Below are positions 449 to 13,781 of a stretch of 13,781 bases of DNA, one piece after another. How positions within the stretch are numbered: the first letter of the stretch is position 1; every line of letters begins with the position of its first letter. This stretch comes from a virus. Its lineage: Duplodnaviria; Heunggongvirae; Uroviricota; Caudoviricetes. The notes beneath the pieces are model-generated. The model did not search any database and was not told where the DNA came from. It worked only from the letters and a program-made list of their open reading frames with translations. The position numbers were made by a program, and so were the translations under genes. Location: positions 1-13,781 of the IMG/VR virus record IMGVR_UViG_2531839665_000026, one strand, 5' to 3'.

Positions 449-2200
449 ATGATTCAGGACGCTTTTGTGCGCCAGCGTGCGCGGCAACTTTACTGGCAGG
501 GTTATCCGCCCGCAGAAATATCACGTCTGATGGGAATAAACCCGAACACGATTTATGCGTGGAAAAAACGCGACCAGTGGGATGAAACGCCACCCGTGCA
601 GCGTGTCACGCAGTCCATCGATGCGCGCCTCATCCAGCTCACTGAAAAACAGAATAAAACAGGTGGTGACTTCAAGGAAATAGACCTGCTGACCCGGCAG
701 CTTAAAAAACTGCATGATGGCCAGCCGGATGCGACGGCCACAGGAAAGAAAGGCCGGGCGAAAAAACTCAAAAATCATTTCACGCCGGAACAGATTGCCG
801 CACTGCGGGAAAAAATCATCAGCAGGCTGGAGTGGCATCAGCGGGGCTGGTTTGACTCCCTGACCCTTTGCAGGGAAGCCGGGATACGTAACAGGATGAT
901 CCTGAAATCCCGACAGATTGGGGCGACCTGGTATTTTGCACAGGAAGCACTGCTGATGGCGCTGCGTGACGATGTGGCGCAACCTTACCAGCGTAACCAG
1001 ATTTTTTTGTCTGCGTCGCGTCGTCAGGCGTTCCAGTTTAAAAGCATTATTCAGAAGGCCGCGGCTGAAGTTGATGTGGAGCTGAAAGGGGGCGATAAAA
1101 TCATCCTCTCAAACGGCGCAGAGCTGCATTTTCTCGGCACTTCTGCTGCGTCGGCACAGTCCTATACGGGCAATTTTTATTTTGATGAATTTTTCTGGGT
1201 CAGTCGCTTTGCCGAACTGCGCAAGGTGGCTGGCGCTATGGCAACCCTCAGCGGACTGCGGCGCACCTACTTCTCCACGCCATCCACCGAAACGCACGAG
1301 GCATACGCCTACTGGAACGGCGACCGCTGGAACGAGAAAAAGGCCTCGCATAAACGCCAGCGTTTTTCTGTGGACTGGAAAACGCTGCATAACGGGCTTA
1401 TCTGCCCTGACCGGACGTGGCGGCAAATTGTCACGCTGGAAGATGTGGTTAATCACGGCTGGAAACACACCGATATTGACGAAATCCGTGATGAAAACAC
1501 CGAAGACGAGTTCCTCAATCTCTATATGTGTGAGTTTGTTCGCGAAGGGGAATCGGCATTTAACCTGAATATCCTGATTGGCTGCGGTGTTGACGGATAC
1601 GACGACTGGAAAGACTGGAAACCTTTTGCTCCCCGCCCGATGGGGAATCGTCCGGTATGGATTGGGTATGACGCAAACGGCAGCAGTGGCAACGGGGACA
1701 GCGGCGCTGTGTCCGTGGTGGTTCCTCCGGCTGTTCCTGGTGGCCGTTTTCGAACGGTGGAGACGCGACGCGTTCAGGGGCTGGAGTTTGAAGAACAGGC
1801 CAGAGTCATTGAAGAGTTCACGTGTCGCTACAACGTGGAACACATCGGCATTGATGTGACGGGCGGGAACGGGGAGGCTGTTTATCAGATAGTGAAACGG
1901 TTTTTCCCTGCCGCTATTCCGTACACCTTCACGCTGTCATCCAAACGGTCGCTGGTACTGAAAATGCAGCAAATAATGCGTGCCGGACGGTGGGAATACG
2001 ATCGCGCCGAACGCGAGCTGGTCGCGGCCTTTAACGCCGTGCGTAAGGTGAAAACACCGGGTGGCTTTATCACTTACGAAACGGACCGCGCGAGGGGGAT
2101 CAGCCACGGCGACCTTGCGTGGGCAACCATGCTTGCTGTCATTAACGAACCAATTGGCGGCGAAGGAGAAAAACGAGCGTTTCACGGTTATGGAGTTCTG
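449..2200 (+). CDS. P: Terminase large (ATPase/nuclease) subunit gpP-like; no in-frame stop, frame continues into the portal
   Basis: N-terminal HTH-like segment (YWQGYPPAEISRLMGINPNTIYAWKKRDQWDE), Walker A-like KSRQIGATWYF, Walker B-like FYFDEFFW, and acidic nuclease-domain motifs (WIGYDANGSSGNGDSGAVSVV, HGDLAWATMLAV). The 584 codons before the internal ATG at 2201 compare with about 590 aa for P2 gpP. AGGGGG lies 4 nt before the ATG at 449. Confidence 0.85.
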
Positions 2201-3247
2201 ATGAGCAGAAAAAATAAAAAAGTGCGCATGAGTTCACGCATTGATCTCGCTGATGCGCTCAGGAAAGAATCATCGCTCAGTGCATTCACATTTGATGGTC
2301 CTTATCGCCTGACCGGGCATGACCTGCTGGACAATATGTACTGTGCTGATAACGGGCGGTGGTATGAAACCCCGGTGGACTGGTACGGTCTGGCAAGAGC
2401 CGCCCGGCAAACGTCCTGGCATCAGTCTGCGCTTTACTTTAAGCGCAATGTATTGCTCGGTTGCTACATCCCGCACCCGCTGCTTTCCCGGCAGGATTTC
2501 TCGGCGCTGGCGCTGGACTGGTTTGTGTTCGGTAACGCATTCCTTGAGCTTCGGAGCAATATGCTCGGCGAACCACTTAAATTACGGCACGCACTGGCGA
2601 AATACATGCGACGCGGAAGCGATCTTGAATCATGGTGGTATGTGCAGGATGGCAAGGACGCGTTTCAGTTTCGCCCTGGCAAAGTGTGCCACCTGATGAA
2701 TCCGGACATTAACCAGGAAATTTACGGCATGCCGGAATATCTCGGCGCATTACTCTCGGCCAGCCTGTCTCATTCGGCGGACATGTTCAGAAAACTGTAT
2801 TACGACAATGGATCCCACGCCGGGTGCATCATCTACATCGGTGCAGCGCAGGTAAACCGCGAAAGCATGGACTCCCTGAAAGAAACGCTACAGGGTGCGC
2901 GTGGTGGTGGTGCGTTTAAAAACGTGCTCATTCATGCGCCCAACGGGGGCAAAGAGGGGGTGCAAATTTTGCCGTTCCAGCAGATCACCGCAAAGGATGA
3001 GTTCATGAATGTTAAGGCGGCATCCCGTGATGATGTGCTGGCTGCGCACCGCGTTCCGCCGCAACTGATGGGGGCGATGCCGGGTGAAAAAAGTGCGTTT
3101 GGTGATGTGGAGAAGGCCGCGCGGGTTTACGCAATTAACGAGCTGATGCCCGTCATGGAGGCCATGAAGCATATCAATGACTGGCTTGGCGAAGAGGTGA
3201 TCCGATTTAACCCTTACGCACTGCTGGACACCCAGCCCACATCCTGA
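2201..3247 (+). CDS. Q: Portal protein gpQ-like (348 aa if initiated at the internal ATG at 2201)
   Basis: Follows P on the same strand as in P2. ATG at 2201 is preceded by GGAG at 2192-2195 (5-nt spacer). Length of 348 aa compares with about 344 aa for P2 gpQ. It has a basic N-terminus (MSRKNKKVRMSSR) followed by a conserved-looking core. Stop codon TGA at 3245-3247. Confidence 0.7.
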   Translation: MSRKNKKVRMSSRIDLADALRKESSLSAFTFDGPYRLTGHDLLDNMYCADNGRWYETPVDWYGLARAARQTSWHQSALYFKRNVLLGCYIPHPLLSRQDFSALALDWFVFGNAFLELRSNMLGEPLKLRHALAKYMRRGSDLESWWYVQDGKDAFQFRPGKVCHLMNPDINQEIYGMPEYLGALLSASLSHSADMFRKLYYDNGSHAGCIIYIGAAQVNRESMDSLKETLQGARGGGAFKNVLIHAPNGGKEGVQILPFQQITAKDEFMNVKAASRDDVLAAHRVPPQLMGAMPGEKSAFGDVEKAARVYAINELMPVMEAMKHINDWLGEEVIRFNPYALLDTQPTS

Positions 3248-3272
3248 CGCGCTTCGCTTGTCTGCTGCTTCG

Positions 3273-3297
3273 CCGGGGCATAAAAAATTTATGCCCC
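3273..3297. other. Perfect 11-bp-stem hairpin (CGGGGCATAAA / TTTATGCCCCG, loop AAA) 26 nt after the Q stop
   Basis: Inverted repeat read directly. There is no U tract on either side, so it is not a canonical intrinsic terminator. It could be an RNA-stabilising stem or a protein-binding palindrome in the cos-proximal region. Confidence 0.6.
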
Positions 3298-3575
3298 GAC
3301 TCTCCAGCTCCTGTATCAATCAGATAATTTCACGACGTCTTCCAGCTTATCGCCATCATCGACGGTCAGGCTCTTACGCAATCCCACTGCGCTGACTGCA
3401 TGTTCTCGCCGCCTCAGTGCGATTTTGACGGCCTTATCTGCTACCCCATCAAATCAAAAGTCCTCACGTCTTTTTCATGCTCAGCGTGAGAAATACAGCC
3501 ATTCTGTTGTGTCGCTGCGACATCGTTCAGGGGATGCTATTTACCCCCTGAAACGCGGGCTGTTCCCCCGTCACC

Positions 3576-3601
3576 TGCGCGCAGAAAAAGCGCGTTTTTT
3601 T
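3576..3601 (+). terminator. Intrinsic terminator for the P-Q transcript
   Basis: GC stem CGCGC (3578-3582) / GCGCG (3590-3594), loop AGAAAAA, followed by T7 (3595-3601). Confidence 0.6.
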
Positions 3602-3609
3602 GTGCACGC

Positions 3610-3628
3610 ACGGATCCTTGACGGATCC
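3610..3628. repeat. Direct repeat ACGGATCC x2 separated by 3 bp
   Basis: ACGGATCC at 3610-3617 and 3621-3628, immediately after the T-run of the plus-strand terminator. Confidence 0.5.
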
Positions 3629-3671
3629 AACTGCCACGCGGGCCGGAAGGGCAAAAATTCGTTCAAAAAAA

Positions 3672-3698
3672 TTGTGCAAATTTGTGCACTATTGTGCA
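3672..3698. repeat. Three helically phased direct repeats TTGTGCA at exact 10-bp spacing
   Basis: TTGTGCA at 3672-3678, 3682-3688 and 3692-3698. The middle copy contains the palindrome GTGCAC. They lie in the non-coding cos-expected region between Q and the cargo operon. Confidence 0.6.
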
Positions 3699-3705
3699 TT
3701 GAAAT

Positions 3706-3728
3706 AAACGCCCTGGAAGAGGGCGTTT
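3706..3728 (-). terminator. Stem-loop terminator ending the minus-strand cargo operon (partly bidirectional)
   Basis: AAACGCCCT (3706-3714) / AGGGCGTTT (3720-3728), loop GGAAG, 10 nt past the stop of the 112-aa gene. On the minus-strand RNA the stem is followed by AUUUC. Confidence 0.6.
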
Positions 3729-3738
3729 TGGCTCATTT

Positions 3739-4077
3739 CTATAGCTTTGATGCAGGCTGGGCTAGGTCTCCTTTGATGCCAGTGTTTACAACCTGACAAG
3801 CCTCTTTGAGTACCCAGTCAACAGCGTCTTTCCATGCTCCGGTTTCGGCTGGCGGATTCTCACGCTTTACCAGTTCATAGAATCGTACTGCTCTAACCAG
3901 TCCATCTGACGGTTTTGCCTGTAGTGCAGCCTGAGCTATGCGGTATGCCTGGAGCATACGGGCGTCGTTGATATCCATTCCGAACGGAATTTCTGATGAT
4001 TGTGATTCTGCATCTTCAAGCCTGGCAATTTCTTTACGTAAAAAGTATTTCAACTCTTGTTTTTGTTTTCTGTTCAT
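3739..4077 (-). CDS. Hypothetical protein, 112 aa, last gene of the cargo operon
   Basis: ORF with AGGGAA-type SD 6 nt upstream of ATG at 4077. Charged and probably helical ([26 protein letters not shown]...). No family recognised. AT-rich relative to the phage backbone. Confidence 0.55.
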
Positions 4078-4405
4078 GCGTTTTTCCCTTTTTGTCTGTC
4101 ACTTCTCTCCTGATAATTTCATTGCACAAATCCACGCACTCATTGCAGATGCAAACAGACGGTCCGGCAATCACCTTTGTGACTTCGTACTGAGATTTAT
4201 TGCAGAAGCTGCAATAAATCGTCTCCTCGCCTGAAGTCCATGTTTTGCTGGTTTCGCCAGACATCAGTTGTTTGAGGTCTTTTTCACGACGAAGAACTAT
4301 CTGGCCACATTCAGCTATTTTTTGGATGTTGACATTTTCTTCTTTCGCCAGCGCTTCCATCCGCTCAATCAGTCGCTGCGCTTTTTCTCTGTCAATGTGT
4401 TGCAT
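4034..4405 (-). CDS. Small protein (123 aa) with a ClpX-type C4 zinc-ribbon domain
   Basis: Residues around 62-100, [39 protein letters not shown], align almost position for position with the N-terminal zinc-binding domain of E. coli ClpX as I recall it ([40 protein letters not shown]). GGGGG SD lies 5 nt before ATG at 4405. The last 44 nt overlap the next gene. Confidence 0.65.
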
Positions 4406-4439
4406 TGTGTCCCCCTTGTTTATGTTCCCGGATTAAAGT

Positions 4440-4463
4440 CATCAGGGCGGATGCGCCCTGATG
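4440..4463. other. Intra-operon perfect hairpin between the parR-like and zinc-ribbon genes
   Basis: CATCAGGGCG (4440-4449) / CGCCCTGATG (4454-4463), loop GATG. A third copy of CGCCCTGAT follows at 4484-4492. Confidence 0.5.
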
Positions 4464-4468
4464 TTGTG

Positions 4469-4780
4469 TTATTCGGGAAATAACGCCCTGATATTTCCGG
4501 CCATCCGACTGGTTATCTGTGTGGTTGGTACTGGCTGTGACGCGGGGCGTTCTGTCCTGGTTTGTGTCACTGATAACGCCTCATCGTCAGCCCATGCAGC
4601 CAGTCGGTAAGCCTCTGCCGGATTCATTTTCAGAAGTGCCAGCCCGGCCAGAAAAGCCACACGTTGGCCGCTTTTGCGGGCTTCTGGTGTAAGGCTGTCC
4701 AGCCAGGCGCATGCTTCGCCTTCGTTCTTGACGGCGGCGGGCTTCAGATAGAAACTTATCCGTCTGGTTGGTGTCGTCAT
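4469..4780 (-). CDS. parR: ParR-like small DNA-binding protein (103 aa from internal ATG)
   Basis: Translation from ATG at 4780 (MTTPTRRISFYLKPAAVKNEGEACAWLDSLTPEARKSGQRVAFLAGLALLKMNP...NIRALFPE) parallels plasmid R1 ParR as I recall it (..RTIAFKLNP...CDTLDSIPQGERSRLNRAALTAGLALYRQDP...NILRSLFPKE). GGAG lies 7 nt upstream, inside the end of parM. There is a 4-nt gap after the parM stop. The upstream 45 codons of the ORF-track entry overlap parM and are not used. Confidence 0.65.
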   Translation of the reverse strand: MTTPTRRISFYLKPAAVKNEGEACAWLDSLTPEARKSGQRVAFLAGLALLKMNPAEAYRLAAWADDEALSVTQTRTERPASQPVPTTQITSRMAGNIRALFPE

Positions 4781-4784
4781 TGGT

Positions 4785-5744
4785 TTACTCCTTGTCCATT
4801 GCGTACAGCCCATTAACCAGAGCAAACTGTGGCACCCCGTCCGCGATGAAAGTCGCATTAACTCCGCAGGCTTCGCGGATAGCGGGTGCCGCAATCTCCG
4901 CCCCGCCACCGACAACCATCACCCGCCCGTAACCCGAAAAACCCGCCAGCGCGCGGATCACTCGTTGTTTCAGTGTTTCTTCCTTTTCACGAATAACCGC
5001 CATCAGGCTGTCGTAATGCGCGTCATTGTGGATGTGCTGGCGCAGCCAGGCTTCATCGTGGCGATGTTCGATAATGGTATTGGCGATATGGTGACTGGTA
5101 CGCATACCGTTAGTGGCCATCACCGACAGTACGGCATCGGCTATCAGGGAAACGCCTACGTGTGGATCGCAAAACACCTGGCTGATACCTGCCAGTTGTC
5201 CCTGGACCTTTGCCACATCCAGCGTGGTTCCGCCTAAATCCACAATCAGCAGGGATTCAAACGGACTCATGTCAGCCAGAGCCTTAAAGCCAGCCGGAAT
5301 GGATTCAGGCATAACCCGCACGTTACGGATAGTGAATGCTTCGCCGTTCTGGTACTCCACCGGGCGCATAACGTTCGCTTTTTTGCGGTTGATGTTGGCC
5401 ATGTCCGGCTGTGCGTTTGTGTCGAAATACTCGCTCAGTGGCAGGGTGACAACCACATCCACCTCCTGTGGCGTGATGCCTGATTTGACCAGTGCGTGAT
5501 GAATGGCAATGACATTCACATCGCTGTATTGGTATTGCGTGTCGGTCGTCTGGACAAAGCGATCGCTGACCGGATCAAAACCGTAGCGCACGCCATCAAG
5601 CATGTAGTTCGCGGGCTGCGTGCCACTGAACGGCGCAGACCATTCCGACTTGAAGCTGTTCGGGCTGATGGCGTTGCGGCGTTCGCCGTTCTCAGTCCAT
5701 GCCAGCTTGATGTTGGTGGAGCCGTCGTCGATACAAATTTTCAT
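4785..5744 (-). CDS. parM: ParM/StbA-like actin-fold segregation ATPase (319 aa)
   Basis: Alignable along its whole length to plasmid R1 ParM (StbA) as I recall it. Shared blocks include IDDGSTNIKL, YSDVNVIAIHHAL, VMPESIPAG, DLGGTTLD and VVGGGAE. Length of 319 aa compares with about 320 aa for R1 ParM. Confidence 0.8.
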   Translation of the reverse strand: MKICIDDGSTNIKLAWTENGERRNAISPNSFKSEWSAPFSGTQPANYMLDGVRYGFDPVSDRFVQTTDTQYQYSDVNVIAIHHALVKSGITPQEVDVVVTLPLSEYFDTNAQPDMANINRKKANVMRPVEYQNGEAFTIRNVRVMPESIPAGFKALADMSPFESLLIVDLGGTTLDVAKVQGQLAGISQVFCDPHVGVSLIADAVLSVMATNGMRTSHHIANTIIEHRHDEAWLRQHIHNDAHYDSLMAVIREKEETLKQRVIRALAGFSGYGRVMVVGGGAEIAAPAIREACGVNATFIADGVPQFALVNGLYAMDKE

Positions 5745-5776
5745 GTCGCTTTTCCTTATGTTGATTAATTAATCGT

Positions 5777-5811
5777 TTACGGGATTCTGAAATCCCGTTT
5801 TTGCCTGTTTT
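5777..5811. repeat. Repeat R1: 35-bp hairpin-containing unit in the A/parM intergenic space (candidate parC-like site or promoter)
   Basis: TTACGGGATTCTGAAATCCCGTTTTTGCCTGTTTT. The internal stem ACGGGAT/ATCCCGT is followed by a T-rich tail on the plus strand. Confidence 0.6.
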
Positions 5812-5820
5812 GTGCGCGCT

Positions 5821-8643
5821 TCATATATCGCTGCGCGTTTTTTGCTCATTTACGGGATTCGTGAGTCCCGTTTCTGTCTGTTTTTTGTTTCCACTGGTCA
5901 GGCCACCCTGCAGCAGGTCTGCTTTGCGGTTGGCGCGTTCAGTGGTTTCACTGATTCTCTGTGCGTGCTCTGCGTCACGGATGGCGCGCAGCATGTCAGA
6001 AAGCACGGTAACGGGGGTTTTCATGGTGTTCTGGTCCTGCTGAAGTGTGGATGCCAGACGTGCGGCGGCTTCGGGGTCTGATGCCCCCAGTTGTTCCAGA
6101 TAGCTGGCGACCGGGTTATGGCGGATCTCTGTGCTGCTTACGCCGTGATTACGGCTCAGGCGCTGCCAGAGCTGCGTGATTCGGCTGTCCGGGCGGGTAT
6201 CCGGTTTGCGTACAATTTCAAATCCCTGCGGTGCAATGATGCTGCCGTCAACGTACAGGCTGCCGCCCCGTAGCAGGTGCTGCATCTGCTGTTCACCGAT
6301 ATGCAGGCCGAGAGATTCGGCAGACTCCCGCCATTCTTTAGCGAGTAATTCGTGGTTATCAGGCAAAGGCCGCTGCTGTTTGCGGCTCTGTGTCCAGCTC
6401 TGCATTTCATCACTGCTGTTTTTTGCCTGTTTGTCACGAAGCGAACGCATCAGCGCCCGGCGTTCGTGCCGTTTCAGTGAGCGCATCCATTCGTTCACTT
6501 CAACGCCATCAGGGAGCTGCGGCCACGGTGCTGGCTGTTCTTCCGGCTGTTCTGTCCCGTTGTTGTTCGTTTCCTGTACACGGGGACAGTTATTGCCACG
6601 AGTCCAAGGGGCGGCAGGGCCGCCCTGAAGGTCAAAACCATTTTCGCGGGCGCTGTCTTCCGCTTCCGGTTTACGTCTTACCAGCTTCCAGTTATCCGGA
6701 TGTGTGCACACACGGGAAGACTCCCCGATGAGTGGTGACCAGATCCCGTAAATCTGTACGCTCTGTTCGCCGTAATCGTTCAGCTCATCTGCGAGGTCGT
6801 AGGCGGTGCGAATCAGGTAGTCTTTGCGTGGAACAAGTACGCCGCCCTGTTTCTCAATGTAGGAGGCAAAACATCCGGCATCAGCGGCAGCGAGCACTGC
6901 ATCCATTGCGTCATCCTTCAGCCGTTGCGGGCCTTCCGGGTTGCGTGCCATCTGGCTGGCAAGGCGACGCAGTTCACGCCACACCTGACGGGAGGGGATG
7001 CCAAAGAACTGGAACTGGCGGACCCGGTGAAGGCGCGCCCAGCCAATGGCGCGTTCCACGCTCTCGGTCATTGATTTTCCGGTTTCGTGGTCAACGCGTG
7101 GTTTGCCTGTTTTCGGGTCGATGCCATCCACGGCGCGGCTGTCCAGGTTCTTTCCGATGTAGGTGGCGATGTAGCTGGTTGGCGTGCCTTTTGAGCCGTC
7201 GACGTACTCCGCTTTAAAACGCGGAGTTATGTCATCGCCCAGCTCGTGGCGGTCTTCCTGAATGGCAATATCGCAGACGTGGGACACGATGGTTTCAATC
7301 TCGTCCGGATGTGCAAAGACCATCATATGCCAGTGCACGGTGCCGTCATGGTGAGGCTCCACCGTGCGGATGCCATACCAGCGCAGGCCGTCGCGGTTCA
7401 GTTTCTTGCGGACCGCCGCAAAAAACGTGTTAACCAGGTAATCGCTGGAGTCGCGCATGGTGGCCCCGTTCCATTTGGGATTCGGATGACCGTTCTCTGT
7501 TGTAGCGTGGTATTTTGACGGGCAGGTGACAGTCAGAAACACCGCTCTGTCGCCACGGGCTTCGGCCAGAAGTTCCAGTCCCTTCATGGTGGCCATCATT
7601 TCTGCCTTACGGTGAACCGGGTTACTTACTCCCGCGTAATACACTGTCTCGAGATCAATCGTGAACCCGTCTTCATTTTCCAGCATGAAACTTTTCAGGA
7701 AATCGCGTGTTTTCTCGCGCTGTGCGCGAAACTCGCTTAACGCGTCCTGGCTCAGATAGGGTGATGTTTTTCTGGAAACCAGACAGGCGGCGCGGAGTTG
7801 TTCTTCTCTCCACTCGCAACGTAACAGCCACAATTTGCGTTTCCACCAGTCCGCACAGGTCAGGCGAAGGATTGCACCCGGCAGCAGTTCTGTGTCCGGT
7901 TCGTTCCTCCGGTCTTTGTCTGTTGTCAGTGCGTCATAATGTGGAGGCATGGTGTGCAGATGTAACGCCATGCGAGCCAGCAGCTGATACGCCTTCAGCG
8001 TTATATCCATGGTCAGCTCGCCATCGGTCGCGCCAAAGCCATCGCAGAGTTTTTCGAAGGTGCTGCTGAACATTGCCGCCGTCATGACGGCCAGTGTCTG
8101 TATCTGGTGTTTGTTGAGCTGCGGCAGGTAAAGTAAATCGTCCAGACGTTCACGTCCGGCAAGGGAGCGATAACCCGGAGTCAGCCAGCGTCCGTCAGTG
8201 CGGGCCAGACGTTCCAATATTTTGCGCAGGGTTCCGCGTGCATAGCGTTCCGCCTGCCAGCTCTTTTTGCCTTTCCGGCGATCGGCTTCCTGCTTTTTGC
8301 GCAGGAAGGAGAGGTGGCGAATAAGCGGATCGCGCAGATAGGACGGCAGCAGGCGCAGCGAGGCCATGGCTTCATCCACCGCACCGCGTGCCTGTTTTCT
8401 GGCGTCTCTGGCCAGTGTGATGGTTTTGTCCTGCTTTTCCTGTGCGTCCAGGCTTTTATTAATCAGGTTGCCCAGCGGCGTTGCGGAGAACGCCGCATCA
8501 GCCATTTCCTGGCGTCGCTCGTTCTCTACCCGGTAAGCATCCAGCCAGGAGGAAAGCGCGGATTCAGGTGCGGGGATCCCCGTACCTTCACGCCCTACTG
8601 CGTGGCGCGGTTGTTGCCAGTCCCTGATGTACTCTGTCGTCAT
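5821..8643 (-). CDS. A: Rolling-circle replication initiator gpA-like (HUH endonuclease), 940 aa
   Basis: Long minus-strand ORF with an HUH-type motif (TVHWHMMVF) and paired tyrosines (TSYIATYIGK), as in the P2 gene A protein. It sits downstream of cox and the small early genes, as in P2. It is longer than P2 gpA (about 761 aa) because of a C-terminal extension. Confidence 0.85.
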   Translation of the reverse strand: MTTEYIRDWQQPRHAVGREGTGIPAPESALSSWLDAYRVENERRQEMADAAFSATPLGNLINKSLDAQEKQDKTITLARDARKQARGAVDEAMASLRLLPSYLRDPLIRHLSFLRKKQEADRRKGKKSWQAERYARGTLRKILERLARTDGRWLTPGYRSLAGRERLDDLLYLPQLNKHQIQTLAVMTAAMFSSTFEKLCDGFGATDGELTMDITLKAYQLLARMALHLHTMPPHYDALTTDKDRRNEPDTELLPGAILRLTCADWWKRKLWLLRCEWREEQLRAACLVSRKTSPYLSQDALSEFRAQREKTRDFLKSFMLENEDGFTIDLETVYYAGVSNPVHRKAEMMATMKGLELLAEARGDRAVFLTVTCPSKYHATTENGHPNPKWNGATMRDSSDYLVNTFFAAVRKKLNRDGLRWYGIRTVEPHHDGTVHWHMMVFAHPDEIETIVSHVCDIAIQEDRHELGDDITPRFKAEYVDGSKGTPTSYIATYIGKNLDSRAVDGIDPKTGKPRVDHETGKSMTESVERAIGWARLHRVRQFQFFGIPSRQVWRELRRLASQMARNPEGPQRLKDDAMDAVLAAADAGCFASYIEKQGGVLVPRKDYLIRTAYDLADELNDYGEQSVQIYGIWSPLIGESSRVCTHPDNWKLVRRKPEAEDSARENGFDLQGGPAAPWTRGNNCPRVQETNNNGTEQPEEQPAPWPQLPDGVEVNEWMRSLKRHERRALMRSLRDKQAKNSSDEMQSWTQSRKQQRPLPDNHELLAKEWRESAESLGLHIGEQQMQHLLRGGSLYVDGSIIAPQGFEIVRKPDTRPDSRITQLWQRLSRNHGVSSTEIRHNPVASYLEQLGASDPEAAARLASTLQQDQNTMKTPVTVLSDMLRAIRDAEHAQRISETTERANRKADLLQGGLTSGNKKQTETGLTNPVNEQKTRSDI
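5849..5883. repeat. Repeat R2: second copy of the 35-bp unit, lying inside the last codons of gene A
   Basis: TTACGGGATTCGTGAGTCCCGTTTCTGTCTGTTTT. 29 of 35 positions match R1, with most differences in the hairpin loop. It sits 72 bp to the right of R1. Confidence 0.6.
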
Positions 8644-8649
8644 ACTGAT

Positions 8650-9015
8650 TTACTTCGTCATGCCATTCAGGGTGTCACGGCAAACGGCAGCCAGACGCTG
8701 AATTTCCAGCACGGTGTCTTCTGTGTCGGCATGGCGATGTGTGATGCGGATGCTGTCGGCAATCACATCGACGATTGCAGAGGATGGGCGCTGGTAAATG
8801 CCAATAACGGACGGGGTGCCACCTTCAATGCGGTAAAGCCTGTAATTTCCCTCGTGGCTGTCAATCATGTAGCGACCATCAATAACAATCTTTCCGTCAG
8901 CGAGCTGCGGTACAGGCAGGGATTTCAGGTACATGTCATAACGATCACGCACGCGAGCGGCAAGATCACGCTCTGTGTTGAGCAGGTATTCAAGAAAGTC
9001 GTTGGCGAGAATCAT
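8650..9015 (-). CDS. Hypothetical early protein, 121 aa
   Basis: ORF with AAGAGGA SD 8 nt before ATG at 9015. Its stop is 7 nt before the A start. No family recognised. Confidence 0.6.
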   Translation of the reverse strand: MILANDFLEYLLNTERDLAARVRDRYDMYLKSLPVPQLADGKIVIDGRYMIDSHEGNYRLYRIEGGTPSVIGIYQRPSSAIVDVIADSIRITHRHADTEDTVLEIQRLAAVCRDTLNGMTK

Positions 9016-9087
9016 TGCGGCAATCCTCTTGTTACAGATGTGCGAAGGCCTCCCGCCGCAAGGTGCAGGAAAGGCCCGGAACAGGAA

Positions 9088-9318
9088 TTAATGGAGTTTG
9101 TTTTGCTGCTGGATGAGCTGTTGAAGCTCGTGCAGATCATCCGCCAGATAACTGAAAACAGAGGCGGAATAAATGTTTGATAGTGCGTGGCTGCGCTCAT
9201 GCAGCATATTGATGTGCATGATTTGCGCGACGCGTGATGCGCGGAAAAGTCTACGGTTGATTTCAGTCTGGATGTGACGACGCGCAGCGTATGCGCGCTG
9301 TTGTTTGCGGTTTGCCAT
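9088..9318 (-). CDS. Hypothetical early protein, 76 aa
   Basis: ORF with AGAGG SD 7 nt before ATG at 9318. Basic N-terminus (MANRKQQRAYAARRHIQTEINRR). Confidence 0.55.
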   Translation of the reverse strand: MANRKQQRAYAARRHIQTEINRRLFRASRVAQIMHINMLHERSHALSNIYSASVFSYLADDLHELQQLIQQQNKLH

Positions 9319-9361
9319 GGTGTGGCCTCTTTGCTCGGTGATAGAAATAGCTCACCATCCA

Positions 9362-9404
9362 GAGTTGAGAATCTCGGGGTGGCGAGACGTACAGGGTTCT
9401 CAAC
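9362..9404. repeat. Inverted repeat GTTGAGAA ... TTCTCAAC (25-nt loop), with a third direct copy of GTTGAGAATC at 9540-9549
   Basis: GTTGAGAATC at 9364-9373, its inverse TTCTCAAC at 9397-9404, and GTTGAGAATC again at 9540-9549. Both direct copies are preceded by CTTTGCTC. Confidence 0.55.
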
Positions 9405-9495
9405 ACCGGAGAGCAAAGAATCCGGCCCGACCGAAGTCGGCCCCGTACGCCCCGCCATAATTCTGACGCGAAAAAGACGTGGCAATACAGTACGC

Positions 9496-9518
9496 ACAAA
9501 AAAACCGCTGGCGCGGTT
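9496..9518 (-). terminator. Intrinsic terminator on the minus strand, downstream of the 67/88/99-aa gene block
   Basis: Stem AACCGC (9503-9508) / GCGGTT (9513-9518), loop TGGC. The plus-strand A7 run (9498-9504) becomes the U tract of a minus-strand transcript. Confidence 0.6.
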
Positions 9519-9590
9519 ATGCGCTTTGCTCTGTATCGGGTTGAGAATCCCGGCACCCGTTTTATGAGGTGCAGCGGAAATGTAACCTGA

Positions 9591-9619
9591 CCGATTGCGG
9601 CATGGCAAGCGGTTTTTTT
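9591..9619 (+). terminator. Intrinsic terminator on the plus strand, ending an unannotated plus-strand transcript
   Basis: CCGATTGC (9591-9598) / GCAAGCGG (9605-9612) with one A-G mismatch, loop GGCATG, followed by T7 (9613-9619). Confidence 0.5.
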
Positions 9620-9640
9620 GTGTGTGCATGTTCTGGTTTC

Positions 9641-9940
9641 TTACTGGTTCAGAAAAAAATCAAAAACCTTGTCAATGCGTTGCAGCAGCTCTTGCTGTAT
9701 TGCTTCCGGCGTTTCCGGTTCGCCGGGTGCCTCCAACGTCGCGCAGAAATCAGCGATTTCATGATGGAGTGTCAGGCGAATGGCAGGAGCCGTGGTTCTG
9801 GCGTGCTCCAGCTCATCCAGCAGTGCCAGCACAGCAGACGGCGAGAGCATTGCGCGAAACGCCAGTAATTTTTGAGGCGTTGCCATTCGTTGCAGGGCAA
9901 ATGCCAGTTCGCGTAGCTTCTGGTGGTTGATGGTGCTCAT
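9641..9940 (-). CDS. Hypothetical protein, 99 aa
   Basis: ORF whose ATG overlaps the upstream stop as ATGA (9937-9940). No family recognised. Confidence 0.55.
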   Translation of the reverse strand: MSTINHQKLRELAFALQRMATPQKLLAFRAMLSPSAVLALLDELEHARTTAPAIRLTLHHEIADFCATLEAPGEPETPEAIQQELLQRIDKVFDFFLNQ

Positions 9941-10203
9941 GTTCTGGCTTCCTTCAGTAGCTGGTTAAACATGTGAGTAAGTGGATTGCTACACCCGAAC
10001 GGCATCGGGTTTACGTGGTAAGAAGCCTGGCCTCCAGTTTTGCGAGCGCGACCACCTGTGCTGCGGTTTGTTCTGATGACTAAGCCGCCGCGCCAAAGTT
10101 GGCGTAACTCAGCATTAATGGCTGTGGTTGGAGTATTCAGTGCTGCGGCGATCTCTCCGCCGCTACAACCCGGATGAGTAGCGATGTAGTCCAGAATGGT
10201 CAT
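9937..10203 (-). CDS. Putative winged-helix DNA-binding protein, 88 aa
   Basis: ATGA overlap with the upstream gene (10200-10203). The N-terminal LDYIATHPGCSGGEIAAALNTPTTAINAELRQL is typical of a wHTH recognition segment. This is a weak fold-level inference. Confidence 0.5.
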   Translation of the reverse strand: MTILDYIATHPGCSGGEIAAALNTPTTAINAELRQLWRGGLVIRTNRSTGGRARKTGGQASYHVNPMPFGCSNPLTHMFNQLLKEART

Positions 10204-10403
10204 CTGCGTGGCTCCTGTACCTGTCGGATAAGATTCACCCGCGCCACGTTGGTGGCGCAGAAGTAAGTGCCGTCAGTGAGGTAGATGTGGTGTGCATCCT
10301 TTTCCGAACGATGTTTGTCGATAGTGGTAATCAGGCGTTCGTCGACCTCGTATTCGCGCCCTCTGGAGGTAAAGCGAACGACGGGAAAATGCTTAATTGC
10401 CAT
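10200..10403 (-). CDS. Hypothetical protein, 67 aa
   Basis: Strong AAGGAGG SD 5 nt before ATG at 10403. First gene of a three-gene translationally coupled block. Confidence 0.55.
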   Translation of the reverse strand: MAIKHFPVVRFTSRGREYEVDERLITTIDKHRSEKDAHHIYLTDGTYFCATNVARVNLIRQVQEPRR

Positions 10404-10489
10404 TACGCCTCCTTGGCGTGTGCGAATACCTCCGCGAATGCGGATTGTTTTTACATTTTCTTATTTAATCTGTGGTTTTATTTGCTCTG

Positions 10490-10603
10490 TTATTCGCCAG
10501 TGAAAAAGCGTTCAATCTTTTTTATTGAATGAATAATTCGCATAATCCCAATAGCGCAGGCCACCGAAATAATCAGAACAAGCCATGAGATAAATATACT
10601 CAT
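10490..10603 (-). CDS. Small hydrophobic peptide, 37 aa (below the ORF-track cutoff)
   Basis: ATG at 10601-10603 overlaps the stop of the upstream 80-aa gene as ATGA. Translation MSIFISWLVLIISVACAIGIMRIIHSIKKIERFFTGE has one predicted transmembrane helix and a basic tail. Confidence 0.45.
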   Translation of the reverse strand: MSIFISWLVLIISVACAIGIMRIIHSIKKIERFFTGE

Positions 10604-10842
10604 GCGATATTCCCCAGCTCATACGGTTCAATATGTTCCCCGCATTCTGCGGCACAGATCAGCTCGGAAAGTTCGTTAAGTGCATCCAGATCATCAGCGT
10701 AAAAAGCCACGTCATACAGACTTCGGATTGCTCTGGTCAATGAGTCACGGGCCGCACGTTCAGCATGAGCGCCTGATGCACTTAAGCGAAAATAAAAGCG
10801 CTCAAGTGCTTTGTTAATGAGAGTTTTATATTCTTTGCCCAT
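10600..10842 (-). CDS. Hypothetical protein, 80 aa
   Basis: ORF starting 11 nt after the stop of the upstream gene. No family recognised. Confidence 0.5.
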   Translation of the reverse strand: MGKEYKTLINKALERFYFRLSASGAHAERAARDSLTRAIRSLYDVAFYADDLDALNELSELICAAECGEHIEPYELGNIA

Positions 10843-10853
10843 CGCAACGCCCT

Positions 10854-11141
10854 TTAATCTGCTTTCTGAATTTCAGTTTCTGAATCCATACAGATAATTT
10901 CGATATAGGGTTTATCGCCATTAACCTGACGAGCCTTTTCAGCTTCGCTAATGATTTCGCGTACGGTCTGGTACGGAAGTTCCACGATCAGTCGCGTGCC
11001 GTTCAGATAAACGTAAGTGGCTTCGGCGGCTCCGTTTTTCCCCGCCGGAGCCACTCCATCAATAGCGGATGCGCGTAATAACAGTTCACCGCGAAAATCA
11101 ATAAAGCGGATAAATACACCTTGAGTATGGTCTTTAGTCAT
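10854..11141 (-). CDS. Hypothetical protein, 95 aa (internal start of the 115-codon ORF-track entry)
   Basis: ATG at 11141 is preceded by AGGTG (5-nt spacer) and avoids overlap with the upstream gene. The longer start at 11201 would overlap that gene by 50 nt. Confidence 0.5.
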   Translation of the reverse strand: MTKDHTQGVFIRFIDFRGELLLRASAIDGVAPAGKNGAAEATYVYLNGTRLIVELPYQTVREIISEAEKARQVNGDKPYIEIICMDSETEIQKAD

Positions 11142-11151
11142 AAAGCACCTG

Positions 11152-11493
11152 TTATAAATCAGCCTGTTTAATAAAACTCTGTCCACGCAGCAGACGATCA
11201 ACCGTGCGAAGCGCTTCGTATAATGTGAAATCCTGCCCGAACTGATTGTCGCCGCTGCTCAGAGCAAAAATGCGGTTTCCGGTAAACGGATTGCGCGGGC
11301 ATTTGTGGACCACGATTCCAGCTTTCTCAATCAGCCAGGCATGCTCGCCGATTTGTTTTACTGGGTAGCCATCCGGCGTTGCGTGTGTATCACTCAGGCT
11401 GTAGCGGATGTTGCTGCGTGATGCACTGGTAGCAAAACGGTTAGCGTGGCGTTCTGCACCATTGCGAAAGCGTGAATTACGTTGCTGTTTCAT
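11152..11493 (-). CDS. Hypothetical early protein, 113 aa
   Basis: ORF in the early operon between cox and A. It may correspond positionally to one of the P2 early genes (B region), but I cannot confirm this by sequence. Confidence 0.5.
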   Translation of the reverse strand: MKQQRNSRFRNGAERHANRFATSASRSNIRYSLSDTHATPDGYPVKQIGEHAWLIEKAGIVVHKCPRNPFTGNRIFALSSGDNQFGQDFTLYEALRTVDRLLRGQSFIKQADL

Positions 11494-11494
11494 G

Positions 11495-11602
11495 TTAAAG
11501 ACTCTGTACAGATTTAATTATTCCGGCATAGAGGCCGAACTCAAAATATTTGCGATTAAATCGCATCGCATTGTTTTCACGTTTTGCGGACTGCTGGTTC
11601 AT
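11495..11602 (-). CDS. Small ORF, 35 aa (below the ORF-track cutoff)
   Basis: GGAGG lies 8 nt before ATG at 11602. Its stop TAA is 1 nt before the ATG of the 113-aa gene. Translation MNQQSAKRENNAMRFNRKYFEFGLYAGIIKSVQSL. Confidence 0.4.
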   Translation of the reverse strand: MNQQSAKRENNAMRFNRKYFEFGLYAGIIKSVQSL

Positions 11603-11653
11603 TTTCGTTTGCCTCCGCACATGAGAATTGCGCCGCTTAAGAGGTAACCGAAG

Positions 11654-11676
11654 TTAATTGATAGTATTACAATTAA
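11654..11676. repeat. Inverted repeat TTAATTG-N9-CAATTAA in an intergenic gap of the early operon
   Basis: Read directly. It lies between the 68-aa membrane protein gene and the 35-aa ORF. It may be an operator or an internal promoter element. Confidence 0.4.
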
Positions 11677-11745
11677 CATAAGGTCCAATTTGTCCATGCC
11701 ACACATAATTACCCTCATTGCAGTAGTTGTGGGTTGTCAGGTTTC

Positions 11746-11952
11746 TCACCCGATAAACCAGATAACAAACGCTATCAACATCGCCCCAATAGCTGCCGGG
11801 AAAAGTCCTTTGGTATAAGCGGCGATATATTCAATGCTGAGTTCAATAAAGCGTTCTTTATGTCCCGTTAACTTGCGAAACAAATAGATCTCTATTACGC
11901 CTATCTCAATAAAAACAAGGGTCAGAATGGCGCTGATGATATGGCTGGTCAT
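11746..11952 (-). CDS. Small membrane protein, 68 aa, two predicted transmembrane helices
   Basis: Starts 6 nt after the cox stop. Two hydrophobic stretches (IISAILTLVFIEIGVIEIYLF and AAIGAMLIAFVIWFIG). Confidence 0.5.
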   Translation of the reverse strand: MTSHIISAILTLVFIEIGVIEIYLFRKLTGHKERFIELSIEYIAAYTKGLFPAAIGAMLIAFVIWFIG

Positions 11953-11958
11953 TTATGA

Positions 11959-12246
11959 CTAAAGTCCCAGCCACAACAACCATGCGTCGCGGCGTTCTTT
12001 CGGTTGCTCAAAAAACGCTTTGCGCATGCCTTCGTTAAATGCTGGCAGATATACCCAGTTTTCTGATGCACGCGTCTTTACTGAACCTGGTTTCACAAAG
12101 TCAATTGTTGGTAGCTTTGCTGCGTCAATCATGGTTCTGACTGTGGATTCCTTGCGGCCGATCATCTTGGCGAATAGTTGATATGGCACCGCTTCAAGTG
12201 GATATGGTGCTACCTGAATGAACCCCCCAAGCTCTGATTCGCTCAT
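11959..12246 (-). CDS. cox: Cox-like excisionase / early-operon regulator (95 aa)
   Basis: Matches P2 Cox as I recall it (VPYQLFAKMIGRKESTVRTMIDAAKLPTIDF...ENWVYLPAFNEGMRKAFFEQPKERRDAWLLWLGL against ...IPYQEFAKLIGKSTGAVRRMIDKGKLPVIDM...EYWVYLPAWNNGLKLAYESRPKEIRDGWLMWLGL). AGGGAGA SD. Divergent from C. Confidence 0.85.
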   Translation of the reverse strand: MSESELGGFIQVAPYPLEAVPYQLFAKMIGRKESTVRTMIDAAKLPTIDFVKPGSVKTRASENWVYLPAFNEGMRKAFFEQPKERRDAWLLWLGL

Positions 12247-12320
12247 TGTGGTAATCTCCCTAATTCGTTCGAATGGCTCAAAATGGCTTATATCGGCTTA
12301 TTTGAGTGTTTTTATGTTTG

Positions 12321-12366
12321 TGCCCGATGTGGCATGTTGTGATGGAGGACATGCCCGATATGGCAT
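12321..12366. promoter_or_regulatory. Putative immunity operator: two 15-bp direct repeats in the cox/C switch region
   Basis: TGCCCGATGTGGCAT (12321-12335) and TGCCCGATATGGCAT (12352-12366), 31 bp apart. The second overlaps the likely C start. A consensus TTGACA on the minus strand at 12370-12375 abuts the second repeat. P2 C is known to bind a pair of direct repeats at the early promoter. Confidence 0.5.
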
Positions 12367-12680
12367 CTTTGTCAAGCATGGGTGAAAAATTTCGCCTGAT
12401 TCGTGAAGCAGAAGGTATGACCCGCCAGGAGTTTGCGGATTGTGTTGGGCTGCCTTATGGGACGGTAACTAACTATGAGGTGAGGGGGAAGCAAGTAACA
12501 GAGGGTGCCTTACTTAAGGTTACGAAACACCCTAAATTTAAGAAGTATGCTTATTGGTTATCAACAGATGAAACGATGCCGGAGGTCGGGCAAATTTCTC
12601 CGGCTCTCTCTCTTGATGGTTCCTGCAATTCGGAGGGAGATCGCGTTTCAACCGAAACAATCCAAAAATTATCCCGCTGA
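12360..12680 (+). CDS. C: C repressor-like immunity repressor (106 aa from ATG at 12360)
   Basis: MGEKFRLIREAEGMTRQEFADCVGLPYGTVTNYE...KFKKYAYWLSTDETMPEVGQISPALS parallels P2 C as I recall it (ISEKIVLMRKSEYLSRQQLADLTGVPYGTLSYYE...QFTKYTLWFMTNQIAPESGQIAPALA). The start is ambiguous between 12342, 12360 and 12378; the ORF-track start at 12306 is unlikely. Confidence 0.8.
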   Translation: MASLSSMGEKFRLIREAEGMTRQEFADCVGLPYGTVTNYEVRGKQVTEGALLKVTKHPKFKKYAYWLSTDETMPEVGQISPALSLDGSCNSEGDRVSTETIQKLSR

Positions 12681-12776
12681 GGCCAGAAAACTGGTTAGAC
12701 CTGCTTTTTGTCTGGTCTGATTATTGCTGGAAAGAGGCTGGAGAAATTGTAGAGCGGTTCATTGGAGGGCTTCGTA

Positions 12777-13781
12777 ATGTCGATTAAGAAGCTCGAAGAT
12801 GGTCGTTATTTGCTGGACATCAGGCCGAACGGACGCAAGGGAAAGCGCGTGCGTAAGGTATTTGACAAAAAATCGGTAGCGGTGGCCACTGAACGCTACA
12901 TCATGGCGAACGCTGAAAAGCGGGAATATATACAGGGCTACCGTGATCGTCGAACGCTAAATGATTTGCTTGAGTTGTGGTGGATGTATCACGGCCAGCA
13001 CAGGCGTAAGGCGGAAGAAGACCGAAAACAACTGCGCAACATAATCAATGAGCTTGGCGCTGATATGCAGGCTGTGGATCTTGATAAGCTGAAAATTATC
13101 GCGTGGCGTTCTCAAAAGATAGCTGATGGATTGAAACCGTCATCTGCTAACAGGTACATGAATCGGTTATCCGGAATGTTTACCGTGCTGAAAAAAATAG
13201 GTCTTTGGGATGCAGAACATCCAGTAAGGGGAATTTCTATTCTTTATGTATCTCCACGAGAAATGGCGTTCCTGTCACAGAAGGAAGTGGCGCTATTGCT
13301 CGATACACTGGAGGGCGACTACTGGCGTGTTGCGCTTTTGTGTTTAAGCACAGGGGCGCGCTGGAGTGAAGCTTGTAAGCTTCGTGGTGAACAGATAGTT
13401 CATAACCGTGTAACGTTTCTTGAAACCAAAAATGGCCGGAAGAGAACAGTGCCAATTTCGCAGGCAGTTTGTGAGGCGATCAAAACCAGAGAAACAGGCG
13501 GCTTGTTTGAGGTGAAGTACCGGGAATTCTGCCTGGCGCTGAAAAGAGTTAAGCCCGATTTACCAAAAGGCCAGGCTGCACATGTGCTGCGGCATACGTT
13601 CGCCAGCCATTTTGTGATGAACGGAGGAAACATTATTGCGCTTCAGAAGATTCTTGGTCACGCAACCATTCAGCAAACAATGGCATATGCGCATTTTGCA
13701 CCGGATTACCTGCAGGATGCGGTGGCCCTTAATCCGCTGAAAGGTGGCGTAAGTGTCCACGCAGTGTCCACGGGGGATTAA
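12777..13781 (+). CDS. int: P2-type tyrosine integrase (334 aa)
   Basis: From ATG at 12777 (GGAGGG SD with 7-nt spacer): MSIKKLEDGRYLLDIRPNGRKGKRVRKVFDKKS..., with the catalytic region ...LRHTFASHF...LGHATIQQTMAYAHFAPDYLQDAVALNP. This closely parallels P2 Int as I recall it. Stop codon at 13779-13781, the window edge. Confidence 0.9.
   Translation: MSIKKLEDGRYLLDIRPNGRKGKRVRKVFDKKSVAVATERYIMANAEKREYIQGYRDRRTLNDLLELWWMYHGQHRRKAEEDRKQLRNIINELGADMQAVDLDKLKIIAWRSQKIADGLKPSSANRYMNRLSGMFTVLKKIGLWDAEHPVRGISILYVSPREMAFLSQKEVALLLDTLEGDYWRVALLCLSTGARWSEACKLRGEQIVHNRVTFLETKNGRKRTVPISQAVCEAIKTRETGGLFEVKYREFCLALKRVKPDLPKGQAAHVLRHTFASHFVMNGGNIIALQKILGHATIQQTMAYAHFAPDYLQDAVALNPLKGGVSVHAVSTGD

Follow-up and report, generated by a model that had tools for sequence, protein, structure and literature searches.

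Phages P2 and 186 and the satellite P4 carry cos sites with 19-nt 5' cohesive ends (Ziermann and Calendar 1990, as cited in PMC9122126). In P2-like phages, cos lies between gpQ and gpA, beside a hotspot of variable genes, and for P4 and P2 it is "the only homologous region" (PMC9122126). The 19-bp cohesive end of the family is close to GGCG(A/T)GGCGGGGAAAGCA(C/T). As references for spacing, we used the records of P2, P4 and 186, in which the termini carry a cohesive-end annotation. All three have one proximal and three distal ATGCA boxes at equal distances from the 19-mer (+25, +97, +107 and +117 to +120). For Salmonella phage SEN4 (Senquatrovirus), the published sticky end is GGCGAGGCGGGGGAACGAG (PMC5261728), and the SEN4 record begins there. 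That end may have been assigned by its likeness to P2 instead of being measured; the SEN4 19-mer is identical to that of P2 at 15 of 19 positions. Where is the corresponding site in a P88-like prophage? The literature that we searched yielded no P88-type cos, not even its sequence, and no mapped virion ends for the P88-like lineage.

The window and its intergenic interval

The window, by which we mean the whole stretch of 13,781 nt analyzed here, is a P88-like (Xuanwuvirus, P2 family) prophage. Gene families were assigned by Pfam and PHROG scans of its open reading frames (ORFs). On the + strand, ORF 449-3247 joins the terminase large subunit to the portal (Pfam Terminase_5, Terminase_6N, Terminase_6C and Phage_portal; the PHROG terminase and portal families likewise match). 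An intergenic region and cargo genes follow, and then the gene for the replication protein gpA (5821-8643, - strand) and that for the integrase (12762-13781, + strand). This order runs in reverse of the usual P2 map and corresponds to that map followed across cos. The preliminary description of this DNA had reasoned from synteny that the packaging site should lie just past Q, and the location indeed matches that given for P2-like phages (PMC9122126). A cognate P2-type terminase (gpP, with a gpP-like N-terminal domain) and a portal are encoded beside the interval, while the gpM gene falls outside the window. The 490-bp interval (3248-3738) is 91-95% identical to phage P88 and to 15 other P88-like records (Xuanwuvirus).

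The cargo (3739-5744, - strand) encodes a PHROG-660 protein (function unknown), a ClpX-type zinc-finger protein and a ParR/ParM-like (StbA) partition pair. In an integrating P2-like prophage, a segregation system of plasmid type is notable; the P88 annotation has the same cargo genes.

As had been stated from the letters alone, the interval contains no convincing ORF: none in it has a family match or is conserved. The longest, 3425-3796 (+ strand, 123 aa, TTG start), crosses the point where the homology of relatives stops and matched nothing in Pfam or PHROG. Small ORFs are annotated within the interval in P88 and P88_4B11. They are not intact in the window and one of them overlaps the cos core, and we regard them as spurious.

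All six sequence features that had been listed for the interval exist, two of them displaced by 1-2 nt. Three lie outside the region that concerns us most. The perfect 11-bp hairpin is real, with a 3-nt loop, and its coordinates are 3274-3298 (+ strand) rather than 3273-3297. It begins 27 nt past the portal stop codon, outside the cos core, and folds at -17.6 kcal/mol (z = -4.9), as well as which none of 200 shuffles folded. It occupies the position of the P2 tQ terminator, which is annotated just after Q, and is absent from the satellite-like element described below. No T-run follows its stem, and a terminator scan made no call there. Rfam gave one sub-threshold match, to this same hairpin (22 bits vs a gathering score of 45), and no tRNA was found. 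The palindrome TGTCGC-T-GCGACA is present at 3510-3522, not at 3508-3520, and is at chance level (z = -0.64; 51 of 200 shuffles). The hairpin that had been called the operon terminator is present as described, with a 9-bp stem (3706-3714 and 3720-3728; + strand z about -3.8, - strand z about -3.9). It can form on both strands just past the stop codon of the - strand cargo ORF 3739-4077, and it is not kept in relatives that carry other cargo. It probably terminates the cargo operon and lies outside the conserved cos.

The stretch 3391-3441 (+ strand) resembles P2 nt 36-88, which lie between the P2 cos and Q, in the opposite orientation relative to the portal (local score 35, shuffle mean 19, z = 6.8; 0 of 300 shuffles). 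It may be the remnant of an inversion. The stretch is absent from the satellite-like element and hence is not needed for packaging.

A predicted cohesive end and the boxes beside it

No P2- or 186-type cohesive end had been found by eye, and a search of the whole window for near-identical P2 or 186 19-mers agrees, with 0 matches at ≤3 mismatches. The preliminary description had proposed such a mismatch-tolerant search as a check; at this divergence, it is unable to settle the question. The best ungapped match in the interval to any known 19-mer is 13/19, at 3557-3575. Taken alone, this is chance level: ten other sites in the window likewise have 13 or more matches. Hence, only the flanking architecture identifies the site.

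Of the relatives with a stated end, SEN4 is the nearest in sequence. Local alignment puts its cos junction on window 3545-3606 at a score of 49; the 300 dinucleotide shuffles averaged 19.9, and none of them reached that score (z = 12.3). Read in portal sense, the SEN4 junction is ...CCCCTCAGCGCGCG / CTCGTTCCCCCGCCTCGCC / CGCACGCAGAAACCCCGCTTTTTTGTGCAA... and the window junction is ...CCCCTGAAACGCGG / GCTGTTCCCCCGTCACCTG / CGCGCAGAAAAAGCGCGTTTTTTTGTGCAC.... About 62 nt around the 19-mer align, and the two sites have the TTTTTTGTGCA proximal box and the box spacing in common; some distal boxes of SEN4 are of the GTGCA type, as in the window. MAFFT placed the P2, P4, 186 and SEN4 junctions, the window and diverse relatives in one register. 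Pairwise local alignments of P2, P4 or 186 alone against the interval were not significant, and so the link to the P2 cos runs through SEN4 and the spacing pattern. A separate candidate placement, with the P2 portal-side flank CCACCGTCAGCGCGCAG on window 3565-3584, was at chance level (score 20, z = 0.2) and was replaced by the SEN4-based register.

In this register, the predicted cohesive-end 19-mer lies at 3559-3577 on the - strand. The + strand reads GCTGTTCCCCCGTCACCTG and the - strand, in the P2 convention, CAGGTGACGGGGGAACAGC. The aligned segment is identical to SEN4 at 11 of 19 positions and to P2 at 10, thus differing from P2 at 9; in the register shifted by 2 nt (3557-3575), 13 positions agree with P2 and 6 differ. 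That degree of divergence is why the site was missed both by eye and by the search at ≤3 mismatches. The register is uncertain by these 2 nt, and we fixed it at 3559-3577 because of the spacing rule +25/+97/+107/+117. The packaging proteins are themselves distant, with the window portal 47% identical to P2 gpQ and 53% identical to that of SEN4, which fits a diverged 19-mer. While the homology and the register can be read directly from these alignments, the cut positions, by homology, would be at the edges of 3559-3577.

What flanks the 19-mer? On the portal side is TTACCCCCTGAAACGCGG (3541-3558, + strand). Its first nucleotide is the left limit of the sequence common to the satellite-like element, and the SEN4 alignment begins within it, at 3545. 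On the other side, directly after the 19-mer, stands the GC hairpin GCGCGC-AGAAAAA-GCGCGT with its T7 run (3577-3601, + strand). The stem spans 3577-3595 and the T-run 3595-3601, and the folding energy alone is unremarkable (z = -1.25). This element had been described as a GC-stem/T7 terminator. It does exist, and a scan finds it terminator-like; however, it is not an unrelated structure but a conserved part of cos, matched in P2 and P4 by the hairpin CGCCCGC..GGGGCGG and its TTTT.

The proximal box, GTGCA at 3602-3606 (+ strand), is +25 from the 19-mer end and is ATGCA in P2, P4 and 186. Beyond it lies a variable spacer of ~65 bp (3607-3671, + strand), conserved in length and mostly not in sequence. 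The spacer holds the tandem ACGGATCC pair, found exactly where first reported (3610-3617 and 3621-3628) and giving two GATC sites. Further on are GGGCCGGAAGGGCAAAAA (3640-3657), which is semi-conserved, and an A7 tract (3665-3671). It is unrelated to the P2/186/P4 spacer. Finally, three phased TTGTGCA boxes (3672-3698, + strand) occupy 3672-3678, 3682-3688 and 3692-3698, placing GTGCA at +97, +107 and +117. They are spaced by exactly 10 nt, one helical turn, and had earlier been described as phased repeats; here too, the repeats turn out not to be unrelated elements but a conserved part of cos. In P2, P4 and 186, three ATGCA boxes align with them. The three boxes are likely the terminase-binding part of the site.

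The layout agrees with the P2/186/P4 cos in several respects. The site lies between the portal gene and a variable region beside gene A, its 19-mer has the same orientation relative to the portal gene, a GC hairpin and T-run come directly after the 19-mer, and the cos is shared with a satellite-like element. The site is also asymmetric in the same way: a few base pairs suffice toward the portal, compared with about 120 bp in the opposite direction. Measured from the 19-mer end (window 3577), (A/G)TGCA boxes stand at +25, +97, +107 and +117 in P2, P4, 186, SEN4, the window and the satellite-like element, the third distal box being at +119 or +120 in P2 and P4. The spacing is kept in 8 of 10 diverse IMG/VR relatives; in the other two, L031 is off by 1 nt and L136 is without the +117 box. 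The difference from P2/186/P4 lies in the 19-mer, in the spacer with its two GATC sites and in the box consensus, which is TTGTGCA in the window and CATGCA in the reference phages. We conclude that window 3541-3698 is probably the cos of a P88-like P2-family phage, an orthologue of the P2, 186 and P4 sites that has drifted in sequence while keeping its layout. The preliminary description had left three options, namely, a divergent cos, a packaging site elsewhere and a packaging site that had been lost; our analysis supports the first and neither of the other two.

Could these structured elements instead be terminators and operator-like repeats serving the cargo genes, with the packaging site elsewhere or packaging by headful? 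The 3577-3601 hairpin is terminator-like on the + strand, the interval lies between two convergent transcription units, and the annotated old-tin transcript of P2 starts about 150 nt from cos. However, the boxes stand at equal spacing in P4 and in the satellite-like element, whose neighboring genes are unrelated; the cargo genes vary and the boxes do not. Moreover, no sigma-70-like promoter was found in 3200-3800, and the P2 family, according to annotated ends, packages from cos. We therefore consider the transcription-signal reading very improbable.

How might a cos of this layout work? By analogy with P2, terminase (the small subunit gpM plus the large subunit gpP) would recognize the boxes, which lie across the 19-mer from the portal, and nick the two strands in a staggered manner, one at either edge of the 19-bp segment; the packaged DNA would then carry 19-nt 5' cohesive ends. 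Where the nicks fall (±2 nt), how long the overhang is and of which polarity, and which protein binds the boxes are all predictions from P2 homology. The lambda cos consists of the nicking site cosN and of cosB, which has R boxes and an IHF-induced bend. As an analogy only, lambda would share its working logic with the window, a nicking site with short, one-sided boxes for the small terminase subunit. In both, one box is proximal and the others are distal, and the segment between them, which in the window has the A7 tract, probably bends. The ~65-bp spacer ending in that tract could bring the proximal and distal boxes together as in cosB. Unlike the window site, lambda cos has a 12-nt overhang, a different terminase family and no sequence homology.

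Do virion DNA records point to another cut? The record LR595891.1 (P88_4B11), assembled from virion DNA, begins exactly at window 3653/3654, in the spacer and 76 nt from the predicted 19-mer, and it is the only public record linearized inside the interval. The region could thus be a cos region that is cleaved at or near 3653/3654, within GGGCCGGAAGGGCA/AAAA, with 3559-3577 kept only as a binding or architectural element. The motif there, GGGCCGGA(A/T)GGGCAAAAA, is the same in the phage as in the satellite and semi-conserved in other genera, and its G-rich strand loosely resembles the P2 19-mer. However, the authors of LR595891.1 removed end repeats and set nt 1 "relative to reference genomes" (PMC6969025). 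Among the sister P2-like records of the same study, three begin at P2 nt 1 and two about 22 nt off; hence, the record starts in that study are editorial choices. In addition, the motif is missing in the most distant of the relatives that keep the 19-mer and boxes (e.g., L096 and L122), as a cleavage motif it would be inverted relative to the portal when compared with P2, and at its offset no similar element exists in P2, P4 or 186. Cleavage at 3653/3654 thus seems unlikely to us, and we favor the 19-mer at 3559-3577 as the nicked segment. The contig ends of IMG/VR loci, taken as a proxy for virion ends in two pattern scans of mostly prophage-derived loci, were not clustered.

Conservation, mosaic phages and a satellite-like element

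To what extent are these parts kept among relatives? Two pattern scans of IMG/VR gave ~160 loci with portals 68-100% identical to that of the window, and we measured conservation in loci selected only on the distal boxes. Within the 19-mer, conservation in these loci is about 90% or more at 18 positions and about 80% at the single other position. The T-run reaches 98% or more, the hairpin stem and the spacer only 50-70%, and conservation collapses past 3698. The proximal box TTTTTTGTGCA at +25, on which these loci were not selected, likewise reaches 98% or more. The cargo begins at 3698, and that position marks the end of conservation on the right. With 3540-3710 as query, blastn matched 1140 of 5426 complete E. 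coli genomes, the homology stopping at 3698-3705.

Four mosaic phages in IMG/VR (L149, L135, L137 and L153) have portals 70-78% identical to that of the window and become nearly identical to P88 from the 19-mer rightward. Since near-identity starts at the 19-mer, the mosaic junction is at cos. These phages fit cos as a recombination joint.

In one respect, this copy of the prophage departs from its relatives. The preliminary description had treated Q as a separate gene. A portal does precede the interval, but here it is the C-terminal part of one 932-aa terminase-portal ORF. The window has an A5 run at 2165-2169, vs A4 in P88, in 77 of 77 related IMG/VR loci and in 1068 of 1068 complete E. coli genomes with the segment. 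This +1 frameshift lies 31 nt ahead of the terminase stop codon; it changes the final ~14 residues of gpP and fuses gpP in frame to the portal. Two origins are considered for the A5 run, an inactivating mutation private to this copy and a sequencing error in the homopolymer. Given the terminase-portal fusion in this copy, the prophage may not package at all. Perhaps, then, the element is defective and its cos a non-functional relic? The private frameshift, which alters the terminase C terminus as well as joining it to the portal, points that way. However, the cos region is intact, with about 95% identity to the one in P88, an active phage, the portal gene still has an ATG of its own, and the extra A sits in a homopolymer and could be a sequencing error. 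We hold it highly unlikely that this cos is a relic. Moreover, such a reading concerns the activity of one copy and not the identity of the sequence as the cos of a P88-like phage.

One hit of the blastn search above lies in a small satellite-like element of E. coli C25 (L007, NZ_CP127314.1, about 4156-13700). This element shares only window 3541-3698 with the phage, at 80% identity. Its 19-mer and boxes are identical to those of the window, and its spacer has diverged. The element encodes an integrase, an 891-aa Toprim primase-like protein, an Icd-like protein and an Ogr/Delta zinc finger. It encodes neither a portal nor a terminase. Elements of this type recur in IMG/VR (L143, L158 and L164), each sharing only 3541-3698, and the satellite version of cos occurs at ≥90% identity in about 56 complete E. 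coli genomes. The C25 element and P88-like phages thus mirror P4 and P2, with cos alone in common. By this parallel, we infer that C25-type elements would be packaged by a P88-like helper.

C25-type elements also encode a homologue of the P2-family major capsid protein (423 aa, with an N-terminal extension of ~120 aa; PF05125, 2e-72). A capsid gene in a P4-style satellite is unusual. The capsid gene adjoins one for a 236-aa protein with no family match.

One further locus, L154, has a P88-type cos and no portal gene, and we considered it as a second satellite. Its cos adjoins a tail-tube gene and a truncated gpD, without head genes, followed by an AAA ATPase and a Dam-type methylase. We regard it as a degraded or rearranged prophage instead.

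The P88-type cos in the biology of P2-family phages

By its layout, the window site belongs to the known P2/186/P4 cos family, and the finding is largely ordinary; it leaves the understanding of cos packaging unchanged. It does give a prophage lineage that is very common in E. coli (1140/5426 complete genomes) a cos annotation that can be tested. It also indicates that, in distant P2-family phages, the P2 19-mer is the wrong sequence to search for and the box spacing +25/+97/+107/+117 a better signature. That P2, P4 and 186 have this spacing in common points to the parts of cos that terminase reads. Such knowledge is useful for DNA-delivery particles built on P2/P4 and in predicting the satellites that can be mobilized by a given helper.

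The P88-type cos is found in about a fifth of complete E. coli genomes. We tentatively suggest, at somewhat less than even chances, that this cos, with its own 19-mer and with TTGTGCA rather than CATGCA boxes, marks a separate packaging-specificity class of the P2 family, served by dedicated integrase/primase satellites that carry a capsid gene. If that is true, then cos sequence, and not only late-gene activation, sorts helper-satellite pairs.
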